A stretch of DNA of 64,000 nucleotides from Calditrichota bacterium (GCA_020637395.1 JACJWA010000001.1:1110078-1174077); one strand, 5' to 3'; shown: positions 3,757 to 33,455, counted from the first letter of the stretch. Notes: generated by a model not told the origin, from the sequence alone. A program made the numbers and translations.

Positions 3757-4150
3757 ACTGATCCGAATTGAAACCGGCGCGCGTCTTCCAGATGCGTTGT
3801 GTACACTTGCGCGGTCTCGCGAATGGAGCTCTGCTGTTTGTTCAGGAATTGGCGGAGTGTCCGATGTTGAATTGGCATACTATGATTTGAGCACAAGGAA
3901 GTATTTGCCCTTTCCGGTGGATGGTATTGTTGAGTTGGTGTCCCTGCAGGGAAATCTATCCACGGTAGATGGAGAACCATTCTGGCATCTTCATGCTATT
4001 ATTGCGGATCGCGAAGGCCGCTGCTTTGGGGGACACCTGAACACATGCGTAGTAGCCTTGACTCTTGAGCTTGCCGTGTGGCCGATGCCGGAGTCTCGAT
4101 CCCGCGCTTTCGACGAAGACCTTGGACTGCGGCTGCTGATCAATGAGTGA
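3740..4150 (+). CDS. PPC/DUF296-domain protein
   Basis: 136 aa with the conserved PPC-domain core (GIGGVSDVELAYYD...LVSLQGNLS...PFWHLHA). Confidence 0.45.
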   Translation: MNLQAELIRIETGARLPDALCTLARSREWSSAVCSGIGGVSDVELAYYDLSTRKYLPFPVDGIVELVSLQGNLSTVDGEPFWHLHAIIADREGRCFGGHLNTCVVALTLELAVWPMPESRSRAFDEDLGLRLLINE

Positions 4151-4799
4151 CAAGAACATTTCGCGCGAACAGAAACACTTTGTCGCTATCGCGGGCAACA
4201 TCGGTGCCGGCAAGACCACGCTCGCCGAGCGGCTTGCAAGGCAGCTCGGCTGGAAATGCCATCTTGAGCCTGTCATTCAGAATCCCTATCTGAGTGACTT
4301 CTATGCTGACATGAGCAGATGGGCTTTCCATCTGCAGATCTACTTCTTGAGCAAACGATTTCAGAGCCAGCTTGAGATTGACAAGGACCCGGTTTCCTGT
4401 GTTCAGGACCGAACGATTTATGAAGATGCCGAGATATTCGCCCGCACTCTTCACAAACGGGGTGCGATGTCCGACCGGGAACTTGAAAACTACTTCGATC
4501 TGTTTGACTCCTTGATTGCGCATTTGAGACCGCCGGATCTGGTGGTTTACCTAAAGTGTGGTGTGGAGCAGCTACTAGAACGAATCAGCAAACGCGGAAG
4601 AAACTACGAAACCGGAATTGACCCCGAGTATCTTGAAGATTTGAACAACGCCTACGATCAGTGGGCGGAAAGCTATTCCGGTAAGCTCCTGATTGTCACC
4701 ATAGATACAATGGCAGAGGGCCGCGCCTTTGAACATGAAGTGTTTGAAGAGTGCATGCGACTGCTCCGTATGAACCTGCAACTGGAAATTGACTTCTGA
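4143..4799 (+). CDS. Deoxynucleoside kinase
   Basis: P-loop IAGNIGAGKTTL at the N-terminus. dNK family length and motifs (ERS-like, DR..YED). Confidence 0.75.
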   Translation: MSDKNISREQKHFVAIAGNIGAGKTTLAERLARQLGWKCHLEPVIQNPYLSDFYADMSRWAFHLQIYFLSKRFQSQLEIDKDPVSCVQDRTIYEDAEIFARTLHKRGAMSDRELENYFDLFDSLIAHLRPPDLVVYLKCGVEQLLERISKRGRNYETGIDPEYLEDLNNAYDQWAESYSGKLLIVTIDTMAEGRAFEHEVFEECMRLLRMNLQLEIDF

Positions 4800-5623
4800 T
4801 GCACGAATACTCATTGCTTTCCAACACAAGAGCGCCGATTCCCGGTTGGCTGCTCGAGATTTCTATCTGGCTTTGCGCACTTGTTCCGTTTGTCTTGGTG
4901 CTTGAGTCGTCCGAAAGCCTGAGCCCTGCGAACATCGCGGCAAGCGCGGTTGCCTGTCTGTTGGGTTATTTTGCCTGGCGAGCAGGTCCATCTTTCCCGG
5001 GCCGTGAGACGGTGTCTCGCGTGTGGATGATCCTTGCAGTGCTCTCGACGGGTGCGGCAATGTTTGGTGCCGGTTTAGCAAGCAAGATTGGTGTTCTTAC
5101 GATTTTGTGGTGTGCGCTGCCCGCAGTCTTGTTGTTTGCGCACTCGAGGATTGACCGCTCGCATCGAGTTCTTAGACAGTCCATTGTTCCTCTTTTGTTT
5201 GGTTCCATTTTCATGTTTGTTTCAACTTCCTTGGGACAGTCAGCCAAGGGAGCTTTTCCTGCCGTAATCGCCGCGCTCTTCCTTTCCGTTTTGCGGGCGA
5301 CGCTGGACATTGAAGAGGATGTTCTGGAGAATCATGGGGACACCGACTCGCTTGTTGTGGAGGAGCATTACAGAAAGAGGCTCGCGATCACTGCAGCGAT
5401 TTTCTTCCTGTTTGGTACGGTCAGCTTGTGGCCCTGGCTTGGCGAAGTGTATAGCCAAACATACTTCTTCATTATGCTGTTCGGAGTACTGCTGCCGCTT
5501 GCGTACTTCTGGGGAAGGATTCGCCAACCGAAGATGGAGGGTGCGCGCGCTGCTTTGACTCGATTTAACCGCATTGCGCCACTGCTTGGCATCTTTCACC
5601 TGGTTGCTGTGCTCTTTTCGTAG
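4799..5623 (+). CDS. Polytopic membrane protein (weakly UbiA-fold-like)
   Basis: About 8 predicted TM helices. Asp/Glu-rich loop DIEEDVLENHGD. No firm family assignment. Confidence 0.4.
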   Translation: MHEYSLLSNTRAPIPGWLLEISIWLCALVPFVLVLESSESLSPANIAASAVACLLGYFAWRAGPSFPGRETVSRVWMILAVLSTGAAMFGAGLASKIGVLTILWCALPAVLLFAHSRIDRSHRVLRQSIVPLLFGSIFMFVSTSLGQSAKGAFPAVIAALFLSVLRATLDIEEDVLENHGDTDSLVVEEHYRKRLAITAAIFFLFGTVSLWPWLGEVYSQTYFFIMLFGVLLPLAYFWGRIRQPKMEGARAALTRFNRIAPLLGIFHLVAVLFS

Positions 5624-6210
5624 TGGACGTTCGTCTTACTCTGGTGTCTGCTTCACCGCGCAGACAGGAACTGCTGAAATCATTGAAGATTCCTTTCGAC
5701 GTGGCGCCCTCTGCGGCATCGGAGTGCTGGCTGGCGCCGACGCCCGAGGAACTTGCTTCTTTGAATGCCGCGCGGAAAGTGGACAGATCACAATACAGGC
5801 GAGACCGTGATCGGTTGCTGCTCGGCGCGGACACCATAATCGCTCTGGATCGGGAGGTTTTCGGCAAACCTGCGGGGAATGACTCGGCGCGCCGAATGCT
5901 GTCACGACTATCTGACCGGTGGCACAAGGTCATCACCGGATTTTGTTTGATGCGGGGCGGGGAAGAGGAGAGAAAAATCTGCGCGAGCGTCGTAGCGGGT
6001 GTTAGAATAAGATCGTTGTCTGCGGTTGAGATTGATGCATACCTTGCAACCTCAGAGTGGGTTGGAAAAGCGGGTGCTTACGCAATTCAGGGCAAGGCAG
6101 GCGCTTTTGTTGAAGAGATTTCGGGGGACTATTCGAACGTAGTAGGATTACCCACAGAGAGGATTGGCCAGGAACTTGAGCGGAACTTTCGCGAATTCAG
6201 ATTTCTGTGA
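5623..6210 (+). CDS. maf: Maf-like nucleoside triphosphate pyrophosphatase
   Basis: LVSASPRRQELLKSLKIPF N-terminal Maf signature. 195 aa. Confidence 0.8.
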   Translation: MDVRLTLVSASPRRQELLKSLKIPFDVAPSAASECWLAPTPEELASLNAARKVDRSQYRRDRDRLLLGADTIIALDREVFGKPAGNDSARRMLSRLSDRWHKVITGFCLMRGGEEERKICASVVAGVRIRSLSAVEIDAYLATSEWVGKAGAYAIQGKAGAFVEEISGDYSNVVGLPTERIGQELERNFREFRFL

Positions 6211-7033
6211 GGAGCTTAGGAAGGCTCGCGAATTCCGAGGGCTTTCTCTCGAGGACATAGCACGTTCGACACGGATTCCTCTGGACTATCTGCGTGCGAT
6301 TGACCAAGGGCAGCTTGACTCGGTCCCAGAAGCAATTCGAAAAGGGGTGATTACCTCCTACGCCAAGGCCGCCGGGATGAATGCGGACCTTGTCGAACGC
6401 TCGCTGAAAGATCCCTCTGCGAAATCCGCGAAGTCGGGGAGCGGACGAGTCGCTGGAGTTCCTTACCGAGAGAAGATGACCGTTGGAATGACCCGTGCGC
6501 AGATCCAGACGGTCTGGTTTGCCAAGCTCTCATCAAATGCTGGCCTCCATTGGGGGGTCACTGCCGTGTTGCTTGGAATTCTCGTCGTGCTCGGGCTGAC
6601 TTCGACTCCTCACTCAAAGACCTCAGTTTATCCATATTCCAATAAGCTTCCATACGGCGGTATCTTAAGGCAGGTTCCCTTCGTGAAAGTGTCAGAACCA
6701 GGAGTTAGTGATTCCGATCCTTTTCTGATTGACTTTGTGCAACATGTCACGACGGCGATCGCGCTGGACACGGGTTTCGTCGAGACCGAACTGGGAATCA
6801 ATGAGTGGGAAACACACAACTTGTATCCTTTTGACACTATAGAGGTTACGCATGGAACCGGACTTAGATTCAGCTTTCCTCCCGGATTTCCACTGCTGGT
6901 CCTAACTGAGAGCGCCGAAACCTTGCGGACCCATTTTACGCACGATTCGACCGCTGCGTGGATCTGCTCGCCTGACCTCAGTTTGGAAGCTGACGCTGAA
7001 GGTGATTCCGCTGTTGCCGATACGGGGAGTTGA
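6164..7033 (+). CDS. RodZ-like HTH membrane protein
   Basis: N-terminal Cro/C1-type HTH (LSLEDIARSTRIPLDYLRAIDQG), central TM helix, C-terminal extracytoplasmic domain. Start may be later than the track gives. Confidence 0.5.
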   Translation: MARNLSGTFANSDFCEELRKAREFRGLSLEDIARSTRIPLDYLRAIDQGQLDSVPEAIRKGVITSYAKAAGMNADLVERSLKDPSAKSAKSGSGRVAGVPYREKMTVGMTRAQIQTVWFAKLSSNAGLHWGVTAVLLGILVVLGLTSTPHSKTSVYPYSNKLPYGGILRQVPFVKVSEPGVSDSDPFLIDFVQHVTTAIALDTGFVETELGINEWETHNLYPFDTIEVTHGTGLRFSFPPGFPLLVLTESAETLRTHFTHDSTAAWICSPDLSLEADAEGDSAVADTGS

Positions 7034-7058
7034 CTTCACCGGAACTCGTTGTTATATT
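7030..7058 (+). promoter_or_regulatory. Sigma70-like promoter (TTGACT-N17-TATATT) upstream of pgsB
   Basis: The exact hexamers with a 17-nt spacer were read directly from the sequence, about 50 nt upstream of the pgsB start. The -35 element overlaps the upstream stop codon. Confidence 0.4.
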
Positions 7059-7110
7059 GTATTTTTTGCAATTCCTGCCTTGACCAAGAACTGCTTCCCG
7101 CTCCGCCGCG

Positions 7111-8334
7111 ATGGTCTATCTGTTCCTCGCTTTTGCCGCATCCCTCCTATTCGCCGTCTGGGAGTACCTCCAGCACCAGAGGCGCGTTAACTCTATTCCC
7201 ATCCGCATACACGTGAACGGTACGCGCGGCAAGTCGTCAGTAACTCGACTGATTGCTGCGGGACTCCGTGCGGGCGGTATTCGCACGCTCGCCAAGACTA
7301 CCGGCACGCTGCCAAGAATTATTCACGCCGATGGGCTGGAAGTGCCCATTCAGCGTCGAAGCGGTGCGAATATTATTGAGCAGGTTAAGGTGTTCCGATA
7401 CTTCGCAAAGGAGAAACCTCAAGCAATCGTTATTGAGTGCATGGCGGTGAACCCCGAATATCAATGGATCTGCGAACACCGATTTGTCCGGGCGTCCGTG
7501 GGCGTGATCACCAACACTCGACTTGATCACATTCTTGAGATGGGGCCAACCCTTGAGAACGTTACGCGCTCTTTGTGCAACACTTTGCCGCCGCGAGGTG
7601 TAGCCTACACTGCCGAGCAAAACATGTTTTGGCTCATGCGAAAAGAAGCAGAGCGATCGGACTGTCGGCTCTGGCGAGTGAACTCGGAAAGCGTCTCGTA
7701 TCTCGAACTTGGACAGTTTTCCTACATAGAACATGCGGACAATGTCGCGCTCGCACTCGCGGTCTGCGAACACTATCATGTTCCCCGCGAAGTCGCTTTG
7801 GAAGGCATGTACAAAGCGTTTCCCGATCCCGGCGCACTAAAAGTGCTGGAAGCCGAAGAGAATGGCAAGGTCGTTCAGTTCATCAATGCGCTGGCAGCGA
7901 ACGATCCTATGTCCACTCTTGCCATCTGGCACAAAGTCAAGGACCTCTCAACTGAAGTTGGCACCGTGATCTTCATGCTGAACACGCGCGCTGATCGCTA
8001 TGACCGCACAATTCAGTTGCTCGAGATGATCCGCGACAATCTGACCGAAGAGTTCGACTATTTGCTTCTGAATGGAGAAAACCTTGACCGTGTCTATGGA
8101 AGTCTCCATGAGTACAACATTGATCCTGCCAAAGCAATTCGCATTGGTATGCAAGATCCATCCGAAACCTACAAAGCCGTGTTTGAACGCGTTTCCGACA
8201 TCGGAACCGTGTTTGCGATGGGGAATGTCGGCAAAGGCGGATTGAATGTCGCGACGTATTTCGCCAATCGCCGCCGTGTCCGCAAGGGAATGAATTCCAC
8301 AGCGCCCAATGAAATTCAGCAGCCGTCGCATTGA
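7111..8334 (+). CDS. pgsB: Poly-gamma-glutamate synthase PgsB/CapB (Mur-ligase-like amide ligase)
   Basis: IRIHVNGTRGKSSVTRL, ECMAVNPEYQ and AFPDPGALKV align with B. subtilis PgsB throughout its length. Confidence 0.85.
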   Translation: MVYLFLAFAASLLFAVWEYLQHQRRVNSIPIRIHVNGTRGKSSVTRLIAAGLRAGGIRTLAKTTGTLPRIIHADGLEVPIQRRSGANIIEQVKVFRYFAKEKPQAIVIECMAVNPEYQWICEHRFVRASVGVITNTRLDHILEMGPTLENVTRSLCNTLPPRGVAYTAEQNMFWLMRKEAERSDCRLWRVNSESVSYLELGQFSYIEHADNVALALAVCEHYHVPREVALEGMYKAFPDPGALKVLEAEENGKVVQFINALAANDPMSTLAIWHKVKDLSTEVGTVIFMLNTRADRYDRTIQLLEMIRDNLTEEFDYLLLNGENLDRVYGSLHEYNIDPAKAIRIGMQDPSETYKAVFERVSDIGTVFAMGNVGKGGLNVATYFANRRRVRKGMNSTAPNEIQQPSH

Positions 8335-8337
8335 CCT

Positions 8338-8793
8338 ATGATTGAGCTTACTATTGGCCTCGGCGTTCTGATCAGCCTCCTCTTTCATGAGGTGGTCGGC
8401 GCGGCTGCGGGCGGCATCGTCGTCCCGGGCTACATTGCCCTGCATCTGAATGACCCCGCGCGCATGCTGGGCACTTTTGCCGTGGCATTTGTGGCGTTCC
8501 TGTGCATTCGGGTTGTGTCGCGTTTCATGTTTGTGTATGGAAGACGACGCATGGTGCTGGCCATCATGTTCGGGTTCATTTTCGGCTACTTAAGCCGCAA
8601 CCTTGTTCTGAACGATGTCATGGTGGCGGATATCCGTCTCGAGGCAATCGGGTTCATTATCCCCGGGTTGATTGCGAACTGGTTCGAGCGACAGGGAATT
8701 GTCAAGACTATAGCCATGATGCTCATTGCTGCGCCCATTGTGAAACTCCTTGTGATGGTTCTGACGGGAGGCGAGATCTATCATGGCGTTTAG
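8338..8793 (+). CDS. pgsC: Poly-gamma-glutamate synthesis membrane protein PgsC/CapC
   Basis: 150-aa membrane protein. GIVVPGYIAL..., FVYGRRR and GFIIPGLIAN match PgsC. Confidence 0.8.
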   Translation: MIELTIGLGVLISLLFHEVVGAAAGGIVVPGYIALHLNDPARMLGTFAVAFVAFLCIRVVSRFMFVYGRRRMVLAIMFGFIFGYLSRNLVLNDVMVADIRLEAIGFIIPGLIANWFERQGIVKTIAMMLIAAPIVKLLVMVLTGGEIYHGV

Positions 8794-9904
8794 GCCCAGT
8801 CTGCGCTCTATTTGGACTCTGATCTCCATGGCAGTGGTGTGCTACGGATTGTACTTGTGGGCGGAGTATCAAGTGGTTGAAGTGAAGCAGCCACATTATG
8901 CCGAGAAGCTTGCTGCGGCGGAACTTGACAGCCGCGCCATGTTTTTGCTTGCATCAATCGAGTCGCGCGACATGGAGTCCCTGGAAAGTTACGGGGACGA
9001 GCGACTTGATGCCCTGATTGGACAGCAGTTCTCAACAATCACGACGGACATTGGCAGTTTCGAATCCAAACTGAACTGCCTTAACCCCAATTTTGCGGCG
9101 GCCGCCCTTGAGCTTCTGATTGGCGCGGGCCTCGAGAAAGGCGATCTTGTCGCGGTCGCACTGACCGGATCCAACCCGGGAGCAAATCTCGCGGTGCTCA
9201 GTGCGTGTCAGGTGTTAGGGCTCAAGGTGAATGTGATTACCTCCATCGGTTCAACCTGGTGGGGAGCGAACGATCCACACTTCACTTGGGTGGACATGCA
9301 GTCCGTGCTGCGGGACAAAAAGCTTCTCGACTTCACGCCGATTGCGGCTTCACGAGGCGGACTTGACGATCTCGCGACTGGACTTTCCGGTACCGGACGA
9401 GACGAGCTCGATGCTGCTGCCGCACGAAACGGCTTGAAAATGCTCTCTGCGACGTCCGCCGATCAAGCTGGTAAATTGTGGTGGGAAACGTTCAAAGCCG
9501 CCGCCCTCGGCGATCGGTACGCCGCCTATGTTAATGTTGGTGAAGGTGTCGCAAGCACCGGACACACAGAGAATGGCCGCCTTTTGAGCGACGGAGTGCA
9601 CCGCCGTCTGCCCAGCCGAAACTGGCCAGCGCGGGGGGCTTTGCACTTTGCCTCCGCCGAGGGCATCCCTGTCATTCACTTCTACGACATGACCCAAATC
9701 GCCCGCGAGTTTGGTTTGGGCACTCCGCGTATTCCACTTACCGAACCCGGTATCGGGGATGTCTTCACCACCGAGCGATATGATGTTCGAATTGCCTCTC
9801 TGGCACTCTTGCTCGCCGTCACCCTGCTTTTCATACTTGTTCGTATTGACGCGAAGTATTTCAGACTCGCGGATGCGGGCGTCGAACCAGAATCTTTGCT
9901 TTAG
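8783..9904 (+). CDS. Poly-gamma-glutamate system accessory protein (not CapA-like)
   Basis: Overlaps the pgsC stop. N-terminal TM helix. No CapA metallophosphatase motifs. Sits where pgsA would be. Confidence 0.4.
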   Translation: MAFRPSLRSIWTLISMAVVCYGLYLWAEYQVVEVKQPHYAEKLAAAELDSRAMFLLASIESRDMESLESYGDERLDALIGQQFSTITTDIGSFESKLNCLNPNFAAAALELLIGAGLEKGDLVAVALTGSNPGANLAVLSACQVLGLKVNVITSIGSTWWGANDPHFTWVDMQSVLRDKKLLDFTPIAASRGGLDDLATGLSGTGRDELDAAAARNGLKMLSATSADQAGKLWWETFKAAALGDRYAAYVNVGEGVASTGHTENGRLLSDGVHRRLPSRNWPARGALHFASAEGIPVIHFYDMTQIAREFGLGTPRIPLTEPGIGDVFTTERYDVRIASLALLLAVTLLFILVRIDAKYFRLADAGVEPESLL

Positions 9905-9925
9905 CACCGAAAACGAATCCTCATC

Positions 9926-10840
9926 ATGAAGCGATACATTGCCCTTCTTTTGTTCTCGCTTGGAGCTCTGTTCACGAATTCATTCGCGGACAATGGTTTC
10001 AAGTACCTGAAACCTGCTACCTATGATCAGGTGACCAAACTCACAGTCGCCGGAAAGTCGCGAACCTACTTCGTTCTCGAAGGAACGAATCAGATCGGCG
10101 CCGTGATAGAGGGACCGTCGCAGCTGAAAGTCATGTCCCGCGCGACCCTTGAAAAGTCCGACCAGCGTCCGGATTACTCTATTGAGGTGCTGCTTGAAGA
10201 AGGGAAGAAGCCGAGAACGATCCACCACACCAGCAAGCTCTCCGAGAAGGCCGACTTGCCGGACGGATCTACTGGGTACCTGGGTGTGCTGCGCTCAAAA
10301 GTGATTGACATTCCTTCCGGGAAGCACAATGTCATCTTGCGTTTGCCCGACGGTTCCAAGGACAAAGTGTATGTCAGGCTGTCGCAAAAAACGAATGAGT
10401 TCACCGGCGGAACTTCCGTGGTCGCGATGACGCCGTTCGAATATACAACTGCGGTTGATTTGGTGTCGAATGAAACGGCATACACCTACTATCGCGTCGG
10501 CGGCGAGGATCGGGTTGCGCTCAAACTGGTCGGTCCCGCAACTCTTAAAGTGCTCAGTCGTATTGAGTTCGGCCCGGAAATGAAGGGCAATCAGCGATGG
10601 AAGATCCAGTTGATGGAAGACGGCAATGCCAAGAAGACCTACAGTCTTGCCGCCAACAACAGCGACGTGATCCAGTATCGCCAGCCTTCGCAGTATGTCC
10701 CCAGCCGCGCCGAAACATTCTTTGTAGAGATTCCTTCCGGCGAACATGTTTACGAGTTCCGCTTGCCCGATGACCGCCGAACCACCTTACTGAGATTCCT
10801 GCTGCCTACTTCCGAATTGACAGGAGACGGATCAGAGTGA
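9926..10840 (+). CDS. Secreted tandem-domain protein
   Basis: Signal peptide. Two homologous ~120-aa halves ending IPSGKHNVILRLPDG and IPSGEHVYEFRLPDD. Confidence 0.5.
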   Translation: MKRYIALLLFSLGALFTNSFADNGFKYLKPATYDQVTKLTVAGKSRTYFVLEGTNQIGAVIEGPSQLKVMSRATLEKSDQRPDYSIEVLLEEGKKPRTIHHTSKLSEKADLPDGSTGYLGVLRSKVIDIPSGKHNVILRLPDGSKDKVYVRLSQKTNEFTGGTSVVAMTPFEYTTAVDLVSNETAYTYYRVGGEDRVALKLVGPATLKVLSRIEFGPEMKGNQRWKIQLMEDGNAKKTYSLAANNSDVIQYRQPSQYVPSRAETFFVEIPSGEHVYEFRLPDDRRTTLLRFLLPTSELTGDGSE

Positions 10841-11934
10841 AACGGGTCACGCTTTCACTTCTCTTCGGAGTGCTTCTGGTTTCAGCGCAGGCGAATGCTC
10901 GCCGTACGAGCTTCCCGACGTTGGACTGGGGGTTGCGAGTTGGAGTGAACGCGATTTACAATGACAATGTTCTGCGTCTGTCCGAAGCGGACGGGAATGC
11001 TTTTCACCGATTTGATCCGGGATTTCGGACTCCGTTGCAAACGCTTGATGACGGAGAAATGGAAATTCTGCTTGCTGCGTCTCTACAGTGGCGAGCACCC
11101 GCAACGACCATGGTCAATTTGAATTATCGGATCAAGGCCGTTCAGCGAGCGCAGAATAGTGTTACAGACTATCAGACCCACAGCCTAGGCGCAAGCATCA
11201 GACCTCGCGTCCGTGGATACAGATGGATTGCGCGGGGTAGCGTTTTCACTATTCCTTCGTTCTATTTGCGTGTGTATCGCGATCGCGACTTCGGCACATA
11301 TGATGATTGCCGCTTCGAGAACTGGGAGTACAACGGTGAGTTCTCCTATCGGATTGCTGAGCCGCTTTGGCTGAGCGCGATGGCAGGCTATGGCACCTAC
11401 TACTACGGTGCACGATTCACCGAGTACGACTCGGAATACAAAGAGTTTGGAGCGGAAGCGGAGTACACCACACGGTGGGATCCGCGACTGGCCTTTCGCT
11501 ACACGCGAAGAGTGTCCGACAATCTGGTTTCGACACAGTCTCTGAGTCTCGTGGATGAGACAGGTGCGCAGCTCCTGGAAGACTCTGAATACGGTGACGG
11601 CGACTTCAATGAAGATGAGTTTCGAGTTTCTCTGAAATCCAGAGTTAGAGCGCTTCACCCGCACACCGTGAATGCATCACTCGTCACACGCATCAGAAGA
11701 CGTGTCTATACGACAGACCGAACTCTTGAGGCAGACCCTTTCCACCGCGGAAGACTAGACACTCGCTGGGATGTTACGCCGACTCTGGACTGGAGTGTCA
11801 GTTCCGCGCTTGATGTCAGCCTGTTTTTTACCTATGAAGAACGCTCGACCGAATCGGACTATGAACCTCTCGCTCTCGTAAAAAACTTCGTCCGTCGTGA
11901 GGTAGGGCTGGGTTTCACGTACCGGATCAGATAA
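10837..11934 (+). CDS. Putative outer-membrane beta-barrel protein
   Basis: GTGA start/stop overlap with the upstream gene. Signal peptide (VLLVSAQANA). Alternating beta-strand pattern, Tyr/Arg-rich. Confidence 0.4.
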   Translation: MKRVTLSLLFGVLLVSAQANARRTSFPTLDWGLRVGVNAIYNDNVLRLSEADGNAFHRFDPGFRTPLQTLDDGEMEILLAASLQWRAPATTMVNLNYRIKAVQRAQNSVTDYQTHSLGASIRPRVRGYRWIARGSVFTIPSFYLRVYRDRDFGTYDDCRFENWEYNGEFSYRIAEPLWLSAMAGYGTYYYGARFTEYDSEYKEFGAEAEYTTRWDPRLAFRYTRRVSDNLVSTQSLSLVDETGAQLLEDSEYGDGDFNEDEFRVSLKSRVRALHPHTVNASLVTRIRRRVYTTDRTLEADPFHRGRLDTRWDVTPTLDWSVSSALDVSLFFTYEERSTESDYEPLALVKNFVRREVGLGFTYRIR

Positions 11935-11957
11935 CAGTTTCCCCCGAAAGAGAAAAG

Positions 11958-11999
11958 GAAACGGCCCTCGATCTGAGGGCCGTTTCTTGCTCTTGTTGT
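11958..11999. terminator. Bidirectional intrinsic terminator between convergent operons
   Basis: Perfect 12-bp inverted repeat GAAACGGCCCTC-gatct-GAGGGCCGTTTC followed by a T-rich tract. Lies between the + strand operon ending at 11934 and the - strand operon ending at 12010. Confidence 0.6.
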
Positions 12000-12009
12000 T
12001 TGCGATGAT

Positions 12010-13170
12010 TCACGCAAACTTTCGTTCTTTCCACGTCACTTCAGGCCTCGTAAACAATGCGCCGACGAGGCGCCAGGCATAGCCGCATGCAAACAAAGGA
12101 TAGGTCGCCGATGCGAGGAATAGTCCCTTCTTGCGGAGCTTGCCCAAGCATGCTGAAATCACCAGCCAGTCGCCAGTCAATACTGCAAGCGCAATCCACA
12201 GTCCCAGACGCCACGGCAGCAGAAGCGCGAAGGGCCAAAGAAGGTGAACGATCAGCTCAATCCCAAAGAATACTTTTCCGGATGCAGAAACGGCCTCCAT
12301 GCCTTCCATCCAACGATAGCGCTGAGTGACGATGGTCTTTGTTTTTGAAACAGGAAGAGTCGCTGCGGCGGAACCGGGGGTCACGGAAAACGCAACTTTC
12401 CATTTCTTGCTCTGCGCAATCGCCTTGAACAGGGCGATGTCGTCAATCCGATTATGCGGGATGCTTCTGAATGAGCCCACTTCGTGATAGGCTGTGCGGC
12501 GCACTGCATAGTTATTGCCGACCAGCGCAAGCGGAAAGCCGAGCCGGCACATTCCCGCGCACGCTCCCAGAAGCAGCGCCCAGTCCACCGTCTCAAGTTT
12601 GGTTACGGTGTCTGAAGTAAGGTCGTAGTCCGGTAGTGTGATTCCACATACCATGCCGATGCACGGCTCAAAATGGCGAACAATGTCCCGTGCCCAATCC
12701 GGCCGTAGCTCGCAATCACCGTCCGTCATGAGCACATAGTCACCCGTGGCAACGTCAATCCCCTGTGCGAGAGGCAAAGTCTTGGTGGGCGGGAGAGATT
12801 CCTCCGGGCCATGTACTGCAGGGATCACGCGCAGAGGAAAGGGAAGGGAACGTCCGAGGTTCTCGGCGATTTGCGCGGTGCCATCCGTCGAGTCGTCATT
12901 AACAAGAATCAGCTCAATCTTGTCTGCGGGATAGTTGAGCTTGCGCAGAGACCCAAAAAGCCGCGGAAGGTTGTGAGCCTCATTGCGCGCCGGGACAACG
13001 ATGGAAATCAGCGGCAGTTCCGATTGACGCGGCGCGCGCTTCAACAATGCGAGAGACGCCAGCGCTGCGGCGCTAAGATGAAAAGCGCCGACAACAGCAG
13101 CAATCCCCGCCGGAATCACGCGACCTCCCGACGTTTCGACGACTCTTCTGGAAGCAACAGCAGACGCCAA
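12010..13170 (-). CDS. Family 2 glycosyltransferase
   Basis: IVVPARNEAHNL...VNDDSTDGT and TDGDCE (DxD) motifs. N-terminal TM region. Confidence 0.7.
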   Translation of the reverse strand: MASAVASRRVVETSGGRVIPAGIAAVVGAFHLSAAALASLALLKRAPRQSELPLISIVVPARNEAHNLPRLFGSLRKLNYPADKIELILVNDDSTDGTAQIAENLGRSLPFPLRVIPAVHGPEESLPPTKTLPLAQGIDVATGDYVLMTDGDCELRPDWARDIVRHFEPCIGMVCGITLPDYDLTSDTVTKLETVDWALLLGACAGMCRLGFPLALVGNNYAVRRTAYHEVGSFRSIPHNRIDDIALFKAIAQSKKWKVAFSVTPGSAAATLPVSKTKTIVTQRYRWMEGMEAVSASGKVFFGIELIVHLLWPFALLLPWRLGLWIALAVLTGDWLVISACLGKLRKKGLFLASATYPLFACGYAWRLVGALFTRPEVTWKERKFA

Positions 13171-13769
13171 TTGCGACGAGTGATTTCGCTCCGAATATGT
13201 TCAAGCACCGGCCGCAGAGTCACAGCACATCCCGGTTTGTCATGAAGAAGCAAAATCATTCGGTCGTGAAAGTTATTCTGAGCGACTCGCAACAAGTCCC
13301 CGGCGGTTCTCATTCGCCAGTCTGAAAGGTGAGCGGACCAAAGTACTGGACTCAGTCCCATCCGCCGGGCAAGACGGCCCGTCCGCCAGTCCAATGAGCC
13401 GTATGGCGGTCGGAACGCAGGTGCCATCGTTGCGCATCCACGGGACTCAATCGCGGCGCGTGTGCGCATCAAACTCTCAGTCACAAACTCTTTCGATTGA
13501 AATGCGTGACGACGATGAACGTATCCATGATTTGCCACGGCATGTCCCGCCGAGACAATCTTACTCAAGAGCTCCTGATTTCTCTCGCATGCTTCGCCAA
13601 CCAGAAACATCGTACACTTGAGGTCCAATTCACTTAGCAGCTGCAACAGTTCGGGAGTGGAGTCCGGATTGGGACCGTCGTCAAAGGTGACCGCAATCGA
13701 GCCGTCTTCAGTAGTGCGAGACTGCCAGCCCGGGATCGCCCGAGGAATCCACTGACTCAAAGGGATCAT
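13116..13769 (-). CDS. Polysaccharide deacetylase (NodB/CE4)
   Basis: TFDDGP...FLVG...HGYVHRRH CE4 motifs. Start moved to the ATG at 13769, which forms an ATGA overlap with the upstream gene's stop. Confidence 0.7.
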   Translation of the reverse strand: MIPLSQWIPRAIPGWQSRTTEDGSIAVTFDDGPNPDSTPELLQLLSELDLKCTMFLVGEACERNQELLSKIVSAGHAVANHGYVHRRHAFQSKEFVTESLMRTRAAIESRGCATMAPAFRPPYGSLDWRTGRLARRMGLSPVLWSAHLSDWRMRTAGDLLRVAQNNFHDRMILLLHDKPGCAVTLRPVLEHIRSEITRRNWRLLLLPEESSKRREVA

Positions 13770-15022
13770 TGCTTCTCTGCCAGCGAAACTGGTTGGCGCG
13801 AGGGTTTCGAATCGCCGCGCAGCCGCAGCCACTTCGGACGGAGAGCTTTGGGCAATGTTGCCGTGCGGTACCAATCTCCCTTCCAACGATAGGGCAGGAG
13901 CAGACCCGCGAGACCAAAGCAGGGAGTGGTCAAAGTGTGCCAAAACTCATACTCTGGAAAGTAGGGCAACAGACGTTCTTGTCTAAACACTCGAGATCCG
14001 GTGATTACAAGCACGGCATCCACCGCAAGCTTAAGTCCCCACACCGCTGCGGCAGCCGAAATCAGAGTGTTACCAAGCACTGCGAGCACAGGTAATACAA
14101 GAAGCAGCAGGTAGTAGAAGTAGATTGCGAACAGGAAGAACAGCATGCTTCCCCGATAACTTAGACCTTTTGAAGCCCAGCGAAGCCGCTGCTGAAACAA
14201 CCCGCGAATTGTGGTCACGGGTAGTGAGCGCACCAGAGTTTCTTGCGTGGTGGCAAACACCATCTTCCAAGTTGTGGACTGTGCCACGCGCTGCGCAAAC
14301 AACACATCGTCCCCGGACACTACGGAAGCACCGGCGCCAAAGCCCTCAATGCTTTCATAGACTTCGCGGCGATAGCAGAGATTGCTGCCGTTGCAGCTTG
14401 CCGCGTGCCCCCAGCCCAGGGATCCCGCCGCCAGAAAATTCTGCACGAAGAAGTCCAGCCATTGAATCTTCTGCCAGCGAGGCACAGAAGCATAATCGGG
14501 CAAATCAAAGACTGTGAGTCCCGCCACAACTCCCACACCTTCCGTCAGATGCGCCACCATGCCGCGCAACCAATTATCGTGGTACTGACAGTCGGCGTCC
14601 GTCGTGAGAATGACCTCTGAGTCGGATGCCGCGATTCCTGCAGCGAGTGCGCGCTTTTTGGGTGACCCTGTGCTCTGTTCTTCGATACGAAGAGAACGCA
14701 GACCTGAATACTTCGCACACAGTTCTGCGAGAACTGTCGGTGTGTTATCCTCACTGCGATCATCCACAACAATCACTTCCCACTTCCCGGGGTAGTTCTG
14801 CCTCATCAGCGAATCGAGGGTCCACGGCAATACCTCCGCTTCATTTCGGGCGGGCATGACGACGCAAACGCTCGGCCAAGAGTCGGGTGCCGCGGACTTG
14901 TTTCGCCGCAGACGTCTTAAGCCAATCGCAAAAACCAGCATGATCACGGCATACACCGCGGTCAGCCCTGCGACAACCACAAGAAGTGCGCTTACAAGTC
15001 CGGTCAGCTTCGGGATCTCCAT
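13766..15022 (-). CDS. Processive GT2 polysaccharide synthase (PgaC/IcaA-like)
   Basis: VVMPARNE, DDRSEDNT, TDADCQ and the QRLRWASKG (QxxRW) motif. Multiple TM helices. Start trimmed to MEIPKL. Confidence 0.7.
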   Translation of the reverse strand: MEIPKLTGLVSALLVVVAGLTAVYAVIMLVFAIGLRRLRRNKSAAPDSWPSVCVVMPARNEAEVLPWTLDSLMRQNYPGKWEVIVVDDRSEDNTPTVLAELCAKYSGLRSLRIEEQSTGSPKKRALAAGIAASDSEVILTTDADCQYHDNWLRGMVAHLTEGVGVVAGLTVFDLPDYASVPRWQKIQWLDFFVQNFLAAGSLGWGHAASCNGSNLCYRREVYESIEGFGAGASVVSGDDVLFAQRVAQSTTWKMVFATTQETLVRSLPVTTIRGLFQQRLRWASKGLSYRGSMLFFLFAIYFYYLLLLVLPVLAVLGNTLISAAAAVWGLKLAVDAVLVITGSRVFRQERLLPYFPEYEFWHTLTTPCFGLAGLLLPYRWKGDWYRTATLPKALRPKWLRLRGDSKPSRQPVSLAEKQ

Positions 15023-16017
15023 TGTCGAGGTAAGGCAAAGATGCGCTTCACGTGAATCAAACCAATCGCTGCAGGCAACGCGACATTCAAAGCAAACAGC
15101 AGAAGGGATGCGGCAATCGCCTGCGAGTCGGGTACGCCAAGTCCCCGCAAACAGAGCATCGCTGTCCATTCGCCCACGCCCAAGCTGCCAAGTGTGAGCG
15201 GGATATTCCCTTTCAAGAAGAAGTTCAAGTGCACCGCCAGCAAACCCGCAAGGAGCGGCACTTCGACTCCCAATGCGCCCAGCATGAGAATGAACTGAAG
15301 GAGAGATACTAAGAGAGAGGCGATGGCCAAGAACAGATAGAGTGCTGCGCTCCGGGTCTGAATCCCCTGTGCAGCTTCAAGAGATGTCACAAGCCCTGCC
15401 GCACGAACCCTAATTTGCAGAACCCCCCGGATCAGCTTTGCAATTCTGCCGGGAACCAATCCCACGCATAGCAATAGAGTCCCCAGCAAGGATAACAGAA
15501 TTGATACTCCGCCGCTCCAAAACAACCACTCTGTTTTCCACCCGAGATACGGCAGTATCCCCAAAGCAATCAAGCCAAACCCGTTGACGGTAATCGCGCT
15601 GTAAAGTCTTTCCGCTACCGTAAGAACGGAAGCTTTGCCCAACGGCACGTTGGTTAGAAACAACCCCCGACCATAGGCACCAACACGACCGGGCGTGATG
15701 AAACCAAGCGTGTGACCCAGCCAATAGCTTGCCCGGATGTCGCTTTCGAGCACGTTTTCCCCCGCGCGCTTCGCGAGCAGTTTCCAGCGCAGATATTGAA
15801 GGTATTGATTGGGAATCCAAAGCAGAATGACGGCAAGAAGCTCGCGCCCACCAACGAAAGAAAGTCCGTTGGAAATCCCCTTCCAATCCAGGCGCCGATA
15901 CAGTAAGTAAAGCAGCGCAAGAGAGAGCGAGACTTTTAGAAAGAAGGCGACATGCCGCTTCCAACCACTCCCGTTGGCGAGATTTCCCATACCGTAATCG
16001 GAAACCGGAACACTCAT
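15004..16017 (-). CDS. Flippase-like membrane protein (lysylphosphatidylglycerol-synthase TM-domain family)
   Basis: Polytopic and rich in Gly/Leu. Family assignment is from overall pattern only. Start trimmed to an ATGA overlap with the upstream stop. Confidence 0.45.
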   Translation of the reverse strand: MSVPVSDYGMGNLANGSGWKRHVAFFLKVSLSLALLYLLYRRLDWKGISNGLSFVGGRELLAVILLWIPNQYLQYLRWKLLAKRAGENVLESDIRASYWLGHTLGFITPGRVGAYGRGLFLTNVPLGKASVLTVAERLYSAITVNGFGLIALGILPYLGWKTEWLFWSGGVSILLSLLGTLLLCVGLVPGRIAKLIRGVLQIRVRAAGLVTSLEAAQGIQTRSAALYLFLAIASLLVSLLQFILMLGALGVEVPLLAGLLAVHLNFFLKGNIPLTLGSLGVGEWTAMLCLRGLGVPDSQAIAASLLLFALNVALPAAIGLIHVKRIFALPRQWRSRS

Positions 16018-17183
16018 GAAGCTTTGGTGACCGTATTCAAGTTTCTCGCTGATTCGAACTGCCTTCCGCGCCAAATGTAGCGCCCACGGAATACATGCGC
16101 AAACACACGCCAGACGAGCCAAATCGGGAGGAATAAGGATCCTGCAAGTACTCCTGGCGGAGTGATGTCGAGTTTCATTCGACGGGAGAACCATACTCCC
16201 GCAGCAGTGTCCAGCGCAACCTTGACTATTGTCGCAGCAGCGAGAATCGAGCAGCTCGGAAAAATCAAGGGCGACAAAAGCAGGGGATAGCTCAGCACTC
16301 CGACGAGCGAAGTCCAGGCGAACAGCAGCCGCCAGCGGATGGGATAGAATCGAGTTACGCTCTGATGCCGCGCCGCTTGAGACAACCTTGAACCGCGTGC
16401 GCCGTGATCCGTGACAACGCTTTCCGGAGAGTCGCAGAACACGACTCTCCAGCCCGTGCGTGCAATGGCCTGCACCGTCAAATCGTCATCGCCTGACGGT
16501 AGGTCCCGCCGAACAGGCGCTCCGACGTCTTCAATCGCTTGTCGCCGATAGAGTATGCTGTGTCCGCATGCCGAAGCTGGAAATCCCCACCCACAGGCCG
16601 AGGCCATCGAGATGTTGGCGATCAGTCGCTCCCATCGGTAGGTTTCCGGAACTCCGGTAGGAGGCCAAGAGGCACCGAGAACTGCTCCACAAGAATCGTC
16701 AGAATTTGCGATCAAGGATGACAGCCAGTCTGCAGGAACAGCGCAGTCTGCATCCGTTACTGCTATCCATTGTGTGTCAATCCGCGAAAATGCGAATGCC
16801 AAAGCCTCTTTTTTCGGACTGTGGCACAGGCCGCGGTCCACAGGGTTCGCGCTTACTTCGAGACATTGATTAGCCACTGCAAGCTGCTCGGCTATCTCCT
16901 TGGTTCGGTCGCTCGAGTCGTCATCTATGAACCGCACGACCTTCGGAAACAGGTGAGTCTGCGCCAGCACTGACTCAAGGCATAGACCCACGGTTTGCTG
17001 TTCATTTCTGCCCACAACTGCAATCCCGATCGAACTACCATCCGTTGCGACTTGAGCCACCCAACGCCCGGATTTCGCCCGCCACAGCAGTAGCCCTGTA
17101 ACCAAGAGTACGGAAGGCAGTACAACAAACAGCACTCCGAATGCAAGAAGCCAATCAGGTGGATGGTTCCAAGTCAGCATCAT
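16014..17183 (-). CDS. Family 2 glycosyltransferase
   Basis: N-terminal TM helix. IAVVGRNE...IDDDSSDRT and TDADC motifs. Confidence 0.7.
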   Translation of the reverse strand: MMLTWNHPPDWLLAFGVLFVVLPSVLLVTGLLLWRAKSGRWVAQVATDGSSIGIAVVGRNEQQTVGLCLESVLAQTHLFPKVVRFIDDDSSDRTKEIAEQLAVANQCLEVSANPVDRGLCHSPKKEALAFAFSRIDTQWIAVTDADCAVPADWLSSLIANSDDSCGAVLGASWPPTGVPETYRWERLIANISMASACGWGFPASACGHSILYRRQAIEDVGAPVRRDLPSGDDDLTVQAIARTGWRVVFCDSPESVVTDHGARGSRLSQAARHQSVTRFYPIRWRLLFAWTSLVGVLSYPLLLSPLIFPSCSILAAATIVKVALDTAAGVWFSRRMKLDITPPGVLAGSLFLPIWLVWRVFAHVFRGRYIWRGRQFESARNLNTVTKAS

Positions 17184-33381: not shown

Positions 33382-33455
33382 GCCCCCGTAGCTCAGTGGA
33401 TAGAGCACCGGCCTCCGGAGCCGGGAGCATGGGTTCGAGTCCCGTCGGGGGCGCA
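33382..33455 (+). tRNA. tRNA-Arg (anticodon CCG)
   Basis: Cloverleaf folded by hand: acceptor GCCCCCG/CGGGGGC, D-arm GCTC/GAGC, anticodon stem CCGGC/GCCGG with loop CTCCGGA, T-arm ATGGG-TTCGAGT-CCCGT. Confidence 0.85.

Follow-up and report, generated by a model that had tools for sequence, protein, structure and literature searches.

How poly-gamma-glutamate (PGA) could leave a cell enclosed by two membranes is the question raised by a five-gene locus in a Calditrichota bacterium. The stretch analysed, hereafter the window, comprises 64,000 nucleotides (nt) of a metagenome-assembled genome (MAG; GCA_020637395.1, JACJWA010000001.1:1110078-1174077), and the phylum has been assigned to the superphylum of Fibrobacteres, Chlorobi, and Bacteroidetes (FCB) (PMC5317091). 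Five tightly packed open reading frames (ORFs) lie on the + strand at window positions 7111-11934, with protein lengths given in amino acids (aa):

7111-8334, + strand, pgsB (g1), 407 aa: Mur-ligase-like amide ligase, poly-gamma-glutamate synthase
8338-8793, + strand, pgsC (g2), 151 aa: small polytopic membrane partner of PgsB
8783-9904, + strand, g3, 373 aa: TIGR04332 'poly-gamma-glutamate system protein', in the place of PgsA/CapA
9926-10840, + strand, g4, 304 aa: secreted protein with two homologous beta-jelly-roll domains
10837-11934, + strand, g5, 365 aa, GTG start: signal peptide and predicted 14-stranded outer-membrane beta-barrel

PGA is a capsule and virulence factor as well as an industrial polymer, and what is known of its biology comes almost wholly from monoderm Bacillus, in which glutamate is polymerised by PgsB with PgsC and the chain is translocated. 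In the reading developed here, which is reasonably probable as a whole, the block would be a trans-envelope machine for PGA or a closely related gamma-glutamyl polymer, adapted to the diderm envelope. That g4 and g5 are functionally coupled to the pgs genes is very probable, and the more specific model in which g5 would act as the export pore of the polymer is fairly likely.

The conservation of the block carries this proposal. Species genomes of GTDB were scanned with a 10-sequence g3 alignment, and 518 genomes with a g3 relative were obtained; the best 80 loci, which are those most similar to the query and all come from MAGs, were annotated with hidden Markov models (HMMs) of g3, g4, and g5 and with phmmer searches using PgsB and PgsC. 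Of these, 67 loci extend 2.3 kb or more beyond g3, and in 65 of them pgsB-pgsC-g3-g4-g5 run colinearly; L043, with g4 only, and L079, with neither g4 nor g5, depart from this order. Since the block persists to this extent while the window's flanking genes recur in only 5–17 of the 80 loci, the five genes, and not their neighbourhood, are the conserved unit; the genes downstream of the block differ between L001 and L003. The initial annotation had staked its proposal on the conservation of the two downstream genes beside pgsBC, and this conservation is what was found. The loci with the block are labelled Calditrichota, KSB1, Zixibacteria, LCP-89, Bacteroidales, Ignavibacteriales, Marinimicrobia, and Cloacimonadota; the sequence of a locus labelled Fermentibacteria ends after g4, and many of the 80 loci are labelled Bacteroidales, Lentimicrobiaceae, and Rikenellaceae. 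L005-L020 and L083 include third-party MAG records labelled 'uncultured Alphaproteobacteria bacterium', 'Candidatus Puniceispirillum', and 'Clostridia bacterium', labels that are doubtful as taxonomy, and several of the loci so labelled hold the full five-gene block with a g3 that is 47–64% identical to the Calditrichota g3. Around the most distant g5 homologues from direct search (37–44% identity), the five-gene order is unchanged. Locus L092 is rearranged to g5, an LVIVD protein, and pgsB, with the link to pgsB retained; L091 begins inside a g4 gene and runs through g4-g5 to an LVIVD/FGE-sulfatase protein. In this distant g5 branch (L091, 2104-4536; L092, 1321-2334), an LVIVD-repeat protein follows the barrel, and one carries an FGE-sulfatase domain.

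All five genes are evolutionarily coupled, and some are joined in natural fusions. A g5 profile search of 1.84 billion representatives returned 576 clusters (50% identity) at E ≤ 1e-3, natural fusions included. With the make-up of the fusions assigned by HMMs built in this analysis, P0381 is a g4-g5 fusion; P0350, P0266, P0322, P0373, P0377, and P0391 combine several g4-type domains with g5; P0353 is a g3-g5 fusion; and P0321 and P0327 join g3, a g4 domain, and g5. A Pfam scan of ten long fusion proteins returned nothing. The three fusions whose context was checked (L087, L093, and L094) each stand directly after pgsB-pgsC. In P0321, a signal-like hydrophobic segment is retained between the g3 and g4 parts, so that the presumed topology would be kept in the fused protein, and the fusion of g4 and g5 to the inner-membrane g3 points to a physical bridge across the periplasm. 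Given the colinearity and the fusions after pgsB-pgsC, 'candidate export or anchoring components', as the initial annotation had called g4 and g5, is a fair description. In the g3-(g4)-g5 fusion loci L087 (1391-3896) and L094 (1541-4067), a divergent histidine kinase and an OmpR-type response regulator lie immediately upstream of pgsB, and this pair is possibly a dedicated regulator.

The identities of the first three proteins are established at the level of sequence families. PgsB matches the equivalog TIGR04012 at residues 5-384 (410.1 bits vs a cut-off of 222.7) and PF08245 Mur_ligase_M (33.4 bits vs 24), and it has an N-terminal hydrophobic anchor and a P-loop, GTRGKSS, at residues 37-43; PgsC matches TIGR04011 over its full length (120 bits vs a cut-off of 96.45) and PF14102 (CapC; 120.2 bits vs 27). 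The earlier identification of pgsB and pgsC, made from motifs, is thereby confirmed above the equivalog cut-offs, and the claim of a non-CapA third gene also holds: g3 has no Pfam match to CapA/PGA_cap (PF09587) at E ≤ 0.1, which places it outside the PgsA/CapA family, and it falls in a family that already has a name, TIGR04332 of NCBIfam, 'poly-gamma-glutamate system protein' (241.1 bits vs a cut-off of 100). This membership rules out the idea that g3 is an orphan. The gene sits beside pgsC in the window and in every related locus whose contig includes pgsC, and its homologues are annotated 'poly-gamma-glutamate system protein' (NCBI, JGI) in MAGs labelled Cloacimonetes, Planctomycetota, Phycisphaerae, and Myxococcales. 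A hydrophobic helix is kept at both ends of the g3 alignment; because basic residues flank these end helices, the central domain of about 300 aa is read as periplasmic, and an N-in/C-in topology would follow. The g3 profile found nothing meaningful, and no solved relative, among PDB sequences.

g4 (H6506_01380) and g5 (H6506_01375) are both annotated as 'hypothetical protein' at NCBI. g4 carries a signal peptidase I (SPI)-type signal peptide, MKRYIALLLFSLGALFTNSFA followed by D, with the cleavage motif SFA before D. As read from the translations, there is no lipobox Cys at the N-terminus of g4 or g5, and the possibility that either is a lipoprotein was ruled out on this ground; without a lipobox or any surface-anchoring signal, g4 is expected to stay periplasmic. 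The folds of g4 and g5 are firmly given by their predicted structures. For g4, two beta-sandwich domains are predicted at residues of about 25-155 and 165-295, with a predicted local distance difference test score (pLDDT) of 87.5, and the two halves align with each other (27% identity, E 2e-10), which makes it a true tandem-domain protein. The initial annotation, which had described a secreted tandem-domain protein, was right on both counts. In fold comparison, the g4 model has jelly-rolls like those of carbohydrate-binding modules (CBM) 35 and 36, a polymer-binding-module fold, without likeness to periplasmic solute-binding folds. Its nearest known counterparts are CBM35, CBM36, and CBM6, to which it has no sequence-family match, and it differs in that these modules bind glycan whereas the presumed ligand of g4 is a polyanionic peptide. 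No Pfam or NCBIfam family matched g4 above threshold; a per-member Pfam scan of the g4 family gave only weak Arrestin_N-type beta-sandwich noise and no CBM family, and the g4 profile found nothing meaningful among PDB sequences. The mature proteins of the g4 family are basic, with a median isoelectric point (pI) of 9.35.

g5 has a classical signal peptide, MKRVTLSLLFGVLLVSAQANA followed by R, with the cleavage motif ANA before R. Its predicted structure has 14 strands, with a pLDDT of 88 and a predicted template modelling score (pTM) of 0.81, in agreement with the earlier description of a signal-peptide beta-barrel. By model and sequence, it has the marks of an outer-membrane beta-barrel: it begins with a signal peptide, its amphipathic strands are even in number and alternate hydrophobic and polar residues, and its turns are short and its loops long. 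The C-terminal residue is Arg, unlike outer-membrane barrels in general, which usually end in an aromatic residue. The closest folds are CymA, the cyclodextrin channel of Klebsiella oxytoca, and OmpG, which are monomeric 14-stranded open channels of the same strand number and size class as the g5 model, at 9–14% sequence identity. Because the g5 profile has no match to PDB sequences at E ≤ 10, and g5 is therefore not placed with CymA and OmpG by sequence, this likeness is one of fold only. No Pfam or NCBIfam family matched g5 above threshold, and a per-member Pfam scan of its family gave only the generic OMP_b-brl, weakly, in 13 of 43 members. The charge of the lumen and the placing of the loops were deduced from the periodicity of the sequence and the DSSP string, without use of coordinates: on this basis, the positions in lumen phase that are conserved at 80% or more comprise nine Arg and one Lys against two Asp and three Glu. 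Conservation is 0.85 in predicted outer loop L4 and 0.76 in L6, compared with 0.30–0.40 in the periplasmic turns. Ordinary porins have the opposite pattern. The motifs YGARFTEYD (loop 4, residues 190-198) and TDRTLEADPFHRGR (loop 6, residues 293-306) are the most conserved parts of the family. That the loops are more conserved than the turns suggests that the long loops turn inward into the pore or touch the polymer.

Taken across the envelope, the proposed machine would work as follows. At the inner membrane, PgsB, an ATP-dependent amide ligase, and PgsC would polymerise glutamate and move the chain outward, as is known from Bacillus; g3, anchored in the inner membrane by two helices and exposing a periplasmic domain, would replace PgsA/CapA; g4, a soluble basic periplasmic protein, may bind the polyanionic chain and/or bridge g3 to g5; and the polymer would exit through g5, the putative outer-membrane conduit, with an Arg-rich lumen and conserved, inward-folding loops. 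A linear polyamide chain would fit easily through a pore of the CymA/OmpG size class. CymA and OmpG themselves belong to sugar-utilisation operons and serve uptake, whereas the g5 gene stands with a polymer synthase.

The core of the block resembles the Bacillus pgsBCA(E)/capBCA(DE) operons, in which PgsB and PgsC are likewise full-length equivalogs and the order is alike, with the synthase first and a membrane-anchored extracytoplasmic third subunit after it. The third gene there is PgsA/CapA, whereas here it belongs to TIGR04332 and has no PF09587 match; the monoderm Bacillus systems have no counterpart of the periplasmic g4 or the outer-membrane barrel g5, and conversely no CapD-type anchoring enzyme is encoded in this block. 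Francisella capBCA shares a diderm host and the core of pgsB, pgsC, and a third gene, which can be likened to g3 by product name only, and it is described as three genes, whereas the present block has five; the Francisella capA is described as a 'poly-gamma-glutamate system protein' in a table (PMC5362203). The trans-envelope logic matches that of the synthase-dependent exopolysaccharide secretion systems for alginate (Alg8/44-AlgK-AlgE), poly-N-acetylglucosamine (PNAG; PgaCD-PgaB-PgaA), cellulose (BcsAB-BcsC), and Pel (PelB/C). These systems have no sequence relationship with this block, and they handle a polysaccharide through a 16–18-stranded barrel with a tetratricopeptide repeat (TPR) scaffold, whereas here there would be a polyamide, 14 strands, and tandem jelly-rolls in the place of the TPR. 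Accordingly, g5 does not fall among the exopolysaccharide export barrels (AlgE, PgaA, BcsC, and PelB), which have 16–18 strands and usually a periplasmic TPR.

Other explanations of g4 and g5 have been weighed against this one. They might hold or organise the polymer at the cell surface while the outer membrane is crossed by another route, by analogy with the outer-membrane lectin Wzi of group 1 capsules and with CapD in Bacillus anthracis. Synteny and fusions show linkage and not the direction of function and fit this equally well, as do the binding-module fold of g4, the conserved outer loops of g5, which could bind polymer, and the existence of loci without g5, from which it follows that the barrel is not indispensable to the synthase. 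Such a surface role is nonetheless unlikely, because the closest structures to g5 are the open 14-stranded channels CymA and OmpG, the conserved block encodes no other candidate conduit, and g4, with neither lipobox nor surface-anchoring signal, is expected in the periplasm. The block may instead produce no free PGA capsule or slime, with PgsBC-g3 gamma-glutamylating an envelope component or building a short polymer on one, and with g4 and g5 as acceptor, scaffold, or partner. Since PgsB and PgsC score over their full length as equivalogs of the polymerase pair of Bacillus, and a large open barrel with a basic tandem binding protein reads more naturally as the handling of a long polyanion, this possibility has a low probability, a little below that of the surface role. 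Two points favour it: the g3 family has neither kinship with CapA nor a relative of solved structure, and the direct g3-g5 fusions would also fit a stable structural complex. In its favour, it has further been reported that capB and capC of the Francisella live vaccine strain (LVS) are not involved in capsule and that the function of capBCA is listed as unknown, yet the mutants are attenuated (PMC4688374).

A role in uptake would make g5 a porin for glutamate or peptides and g4 a periplasmic binding protein, the two supplying the synthase or recovering the polymer as a stored nutrient. This would agree with the uptake function of CymA and OmpG, and it would be sensible to transcribe such genes together with that of an enzyme that consumes glutamate. 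However, the glutamate used by PgsB is cytoplasmic, g4 is unlike the periplasmic solute-binding folds, and proteins in which g5 and g4 are fused to the inner-membrane g3 favour a fixed trans-envelope assembly over a diffusion porin; this role is improbable. Finally, g4 and g5 could be unrelated envelope genes that stand beside pgsBC by shared ancestry of gene order only, and the upstream housekeeping genes are indeed likewise syntenic among the closest relatives. This is contradicted by the flanks being common to 5–17 of 80 loci against the block in 65 of 67, and by the repeated fusions and the rearranged yet linked L092, and it is very improbable indeed.

Several observations weigh against the export model. 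The estimate of lumen charge in g5 comes from sequence periodicity and not from coordinates, and the mature g5 of the window has an overall acidic pI of 5.87. PGA is experimentally known from no organism with the five-gene block, all 80 of the related loci being MAGs. Francisella capB and capC have been reported to be dispensable for capsule production, and the function of the locus is listed as unknown (PMC4688374). Moreover, pgsB-pgsC-g3 occurs without g4 or g5 in one Rikenellaceae locus and in four of five more-distant g3 loci that were sampled (L085, L086, labelled Myxococcales, L089, and L090), while the fifth, L088, has g4 with no barrel nearby. Because loci with pgsB-pgsC-g3 alone exist, g4 and g5 are not universally required, and in this sample the g4-g5 extension is found mainly in loci labelled as FCB-type phyla and is not general to diderm pgs loci.

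These distant loci have features of their own. In L086 (3606-7035), the core pgsB-pgsC-g3 has a different extension in the place of g4 and g5: genes for a C39-like peptidase, for an ATP-grasp protein of the RimK type (alpha-glutamate ligase family), and for a GCS2 protein resembling glutamate-cysteine ligase come after it. The locus L085, which lacks g4 and g5, has a gene of the AstE/AspA family (zinc carboxypeptidase-like) at 4072-5049, just upstream of pgsB, and its product could be a polymer-processing enzyme. At 1-1924 on the - strand, 3.5 kb upstream of a pgsB-pgsC-g3-g4 locus without g5, L088 encodes a large protein that combines PKD repeats and a PGA_cap (CapA) domain with a C-terminal sorting domain for type IX secretion; this would be a predicted secreted CapA-domain protein in an FCB-type organism.

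In previous work, CapsuleFinder counted PGA systems in many phyla with CapB and CapC as the sole mandatory components (PMC5542703), and a 2013 review listed Fusobacterium nucleatum as the only Gram-negative PGA producer (PMC3815933). No outer-membrane component or export step for PGA and no mention of the g4 or g5 families were found in the literature searched, nor anything relevant on pgsB in Bacteroidota or Calditrichota or on PgsBCA cryo-electron microscopy, most subscription journals being outside its coverage. The core synthase and g3 are already known, and no description seems to exist of the conserved g4-g5 module or of its fusions. There is an even chance that g3-g4-g5 is an undescribed trans-envelope secretion apparatus for a polyamide exopolymer, widespread in FCB-type phyla, with the barrel as translocon. 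g4 and g5 are two specific, conserved, unannotated proteins and the first concrete candidates for the exit of PGA from a two-membrane cell; if the proposal is true, they would represent a new kind of outer-membrane polymer exporter and answer how PGA crosses the outer membrane, two sizeable 'hypothetical protein' families would receive names, and PGA-type matrices or extracellular PGA would be expected in many uncultured sediment, gut, and sludge bacteria.

Two further features bound the block in the window:

7030-7058, + strand, match to a sigma-70-like promoter: TTGACT, 17 nt, TATATT, with TG ahead of the -10 and 10/12 consensus matches
11956-11988, hairpin: 15 base pairs (bp), G+C-rich, with T-rich tracts after it on both strands; likely bidirectional terminator

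The block is probably one operon, with two of its junctions translationally coupled and one terminator closing it behind g5. The initial annotation had described overlapping stop and start codons along the block, which is correct for pgsC/g3 (an 11-nt overlap, with GGAGG 11 nt ahead of the g3 ATG) and for g4/g5 (a 4-nt overlap, GTGA, with GGAGA ahead), but not for pgsB/pgsC and g3/g4, which have spacers of 3 nt and 21 nt, respectively. The hairpin, the strongest of the region, lies just past the g5 stop. The single sigma70-like promoter claimed for all five genes is present as a site 52 nt ahead of the pgsB ATG; however, four such sites were observed in the region where 3.2 were expected, and since this is no more than chance, the site stands as a consensus match only and was set aside as an argument for a single transcription unit.

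Upstream of pgsB lies a gene for an HTH_25 (RodZ-like) membrane protein (6164-7033, + strand), whose stop codon falls within the -35 hexamer of the promoter-like site, and the HTH_25 gene and Maf stand ahead of pgsB in 17 of the 80 related loci; among the closest relatives, the upstream housekeeping genes are also syntenic. Downstream, a convergent - strand cluster (12010-17183) encodes a glycosyltransferase-2, a polysaccharide deacetylase, and a further glycosyltransferase-2, with the hairpin terminator in common with the pgs block; ORFs 15004-16194 and 16014-17183 extend this cluster, and in the KSB1-like locus L003 it goes on with an LPG_synthase_TM protein and a further glycosyltransferase-2. 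The cluster adjoins the pgs block in only 5–11 of the 80 related loci and looks like a second exopolymer or glycolipid locus. The sole Rfam match at the gathering threshold in the whole window is a tRNA gene at 33382-33453 on the + strand.

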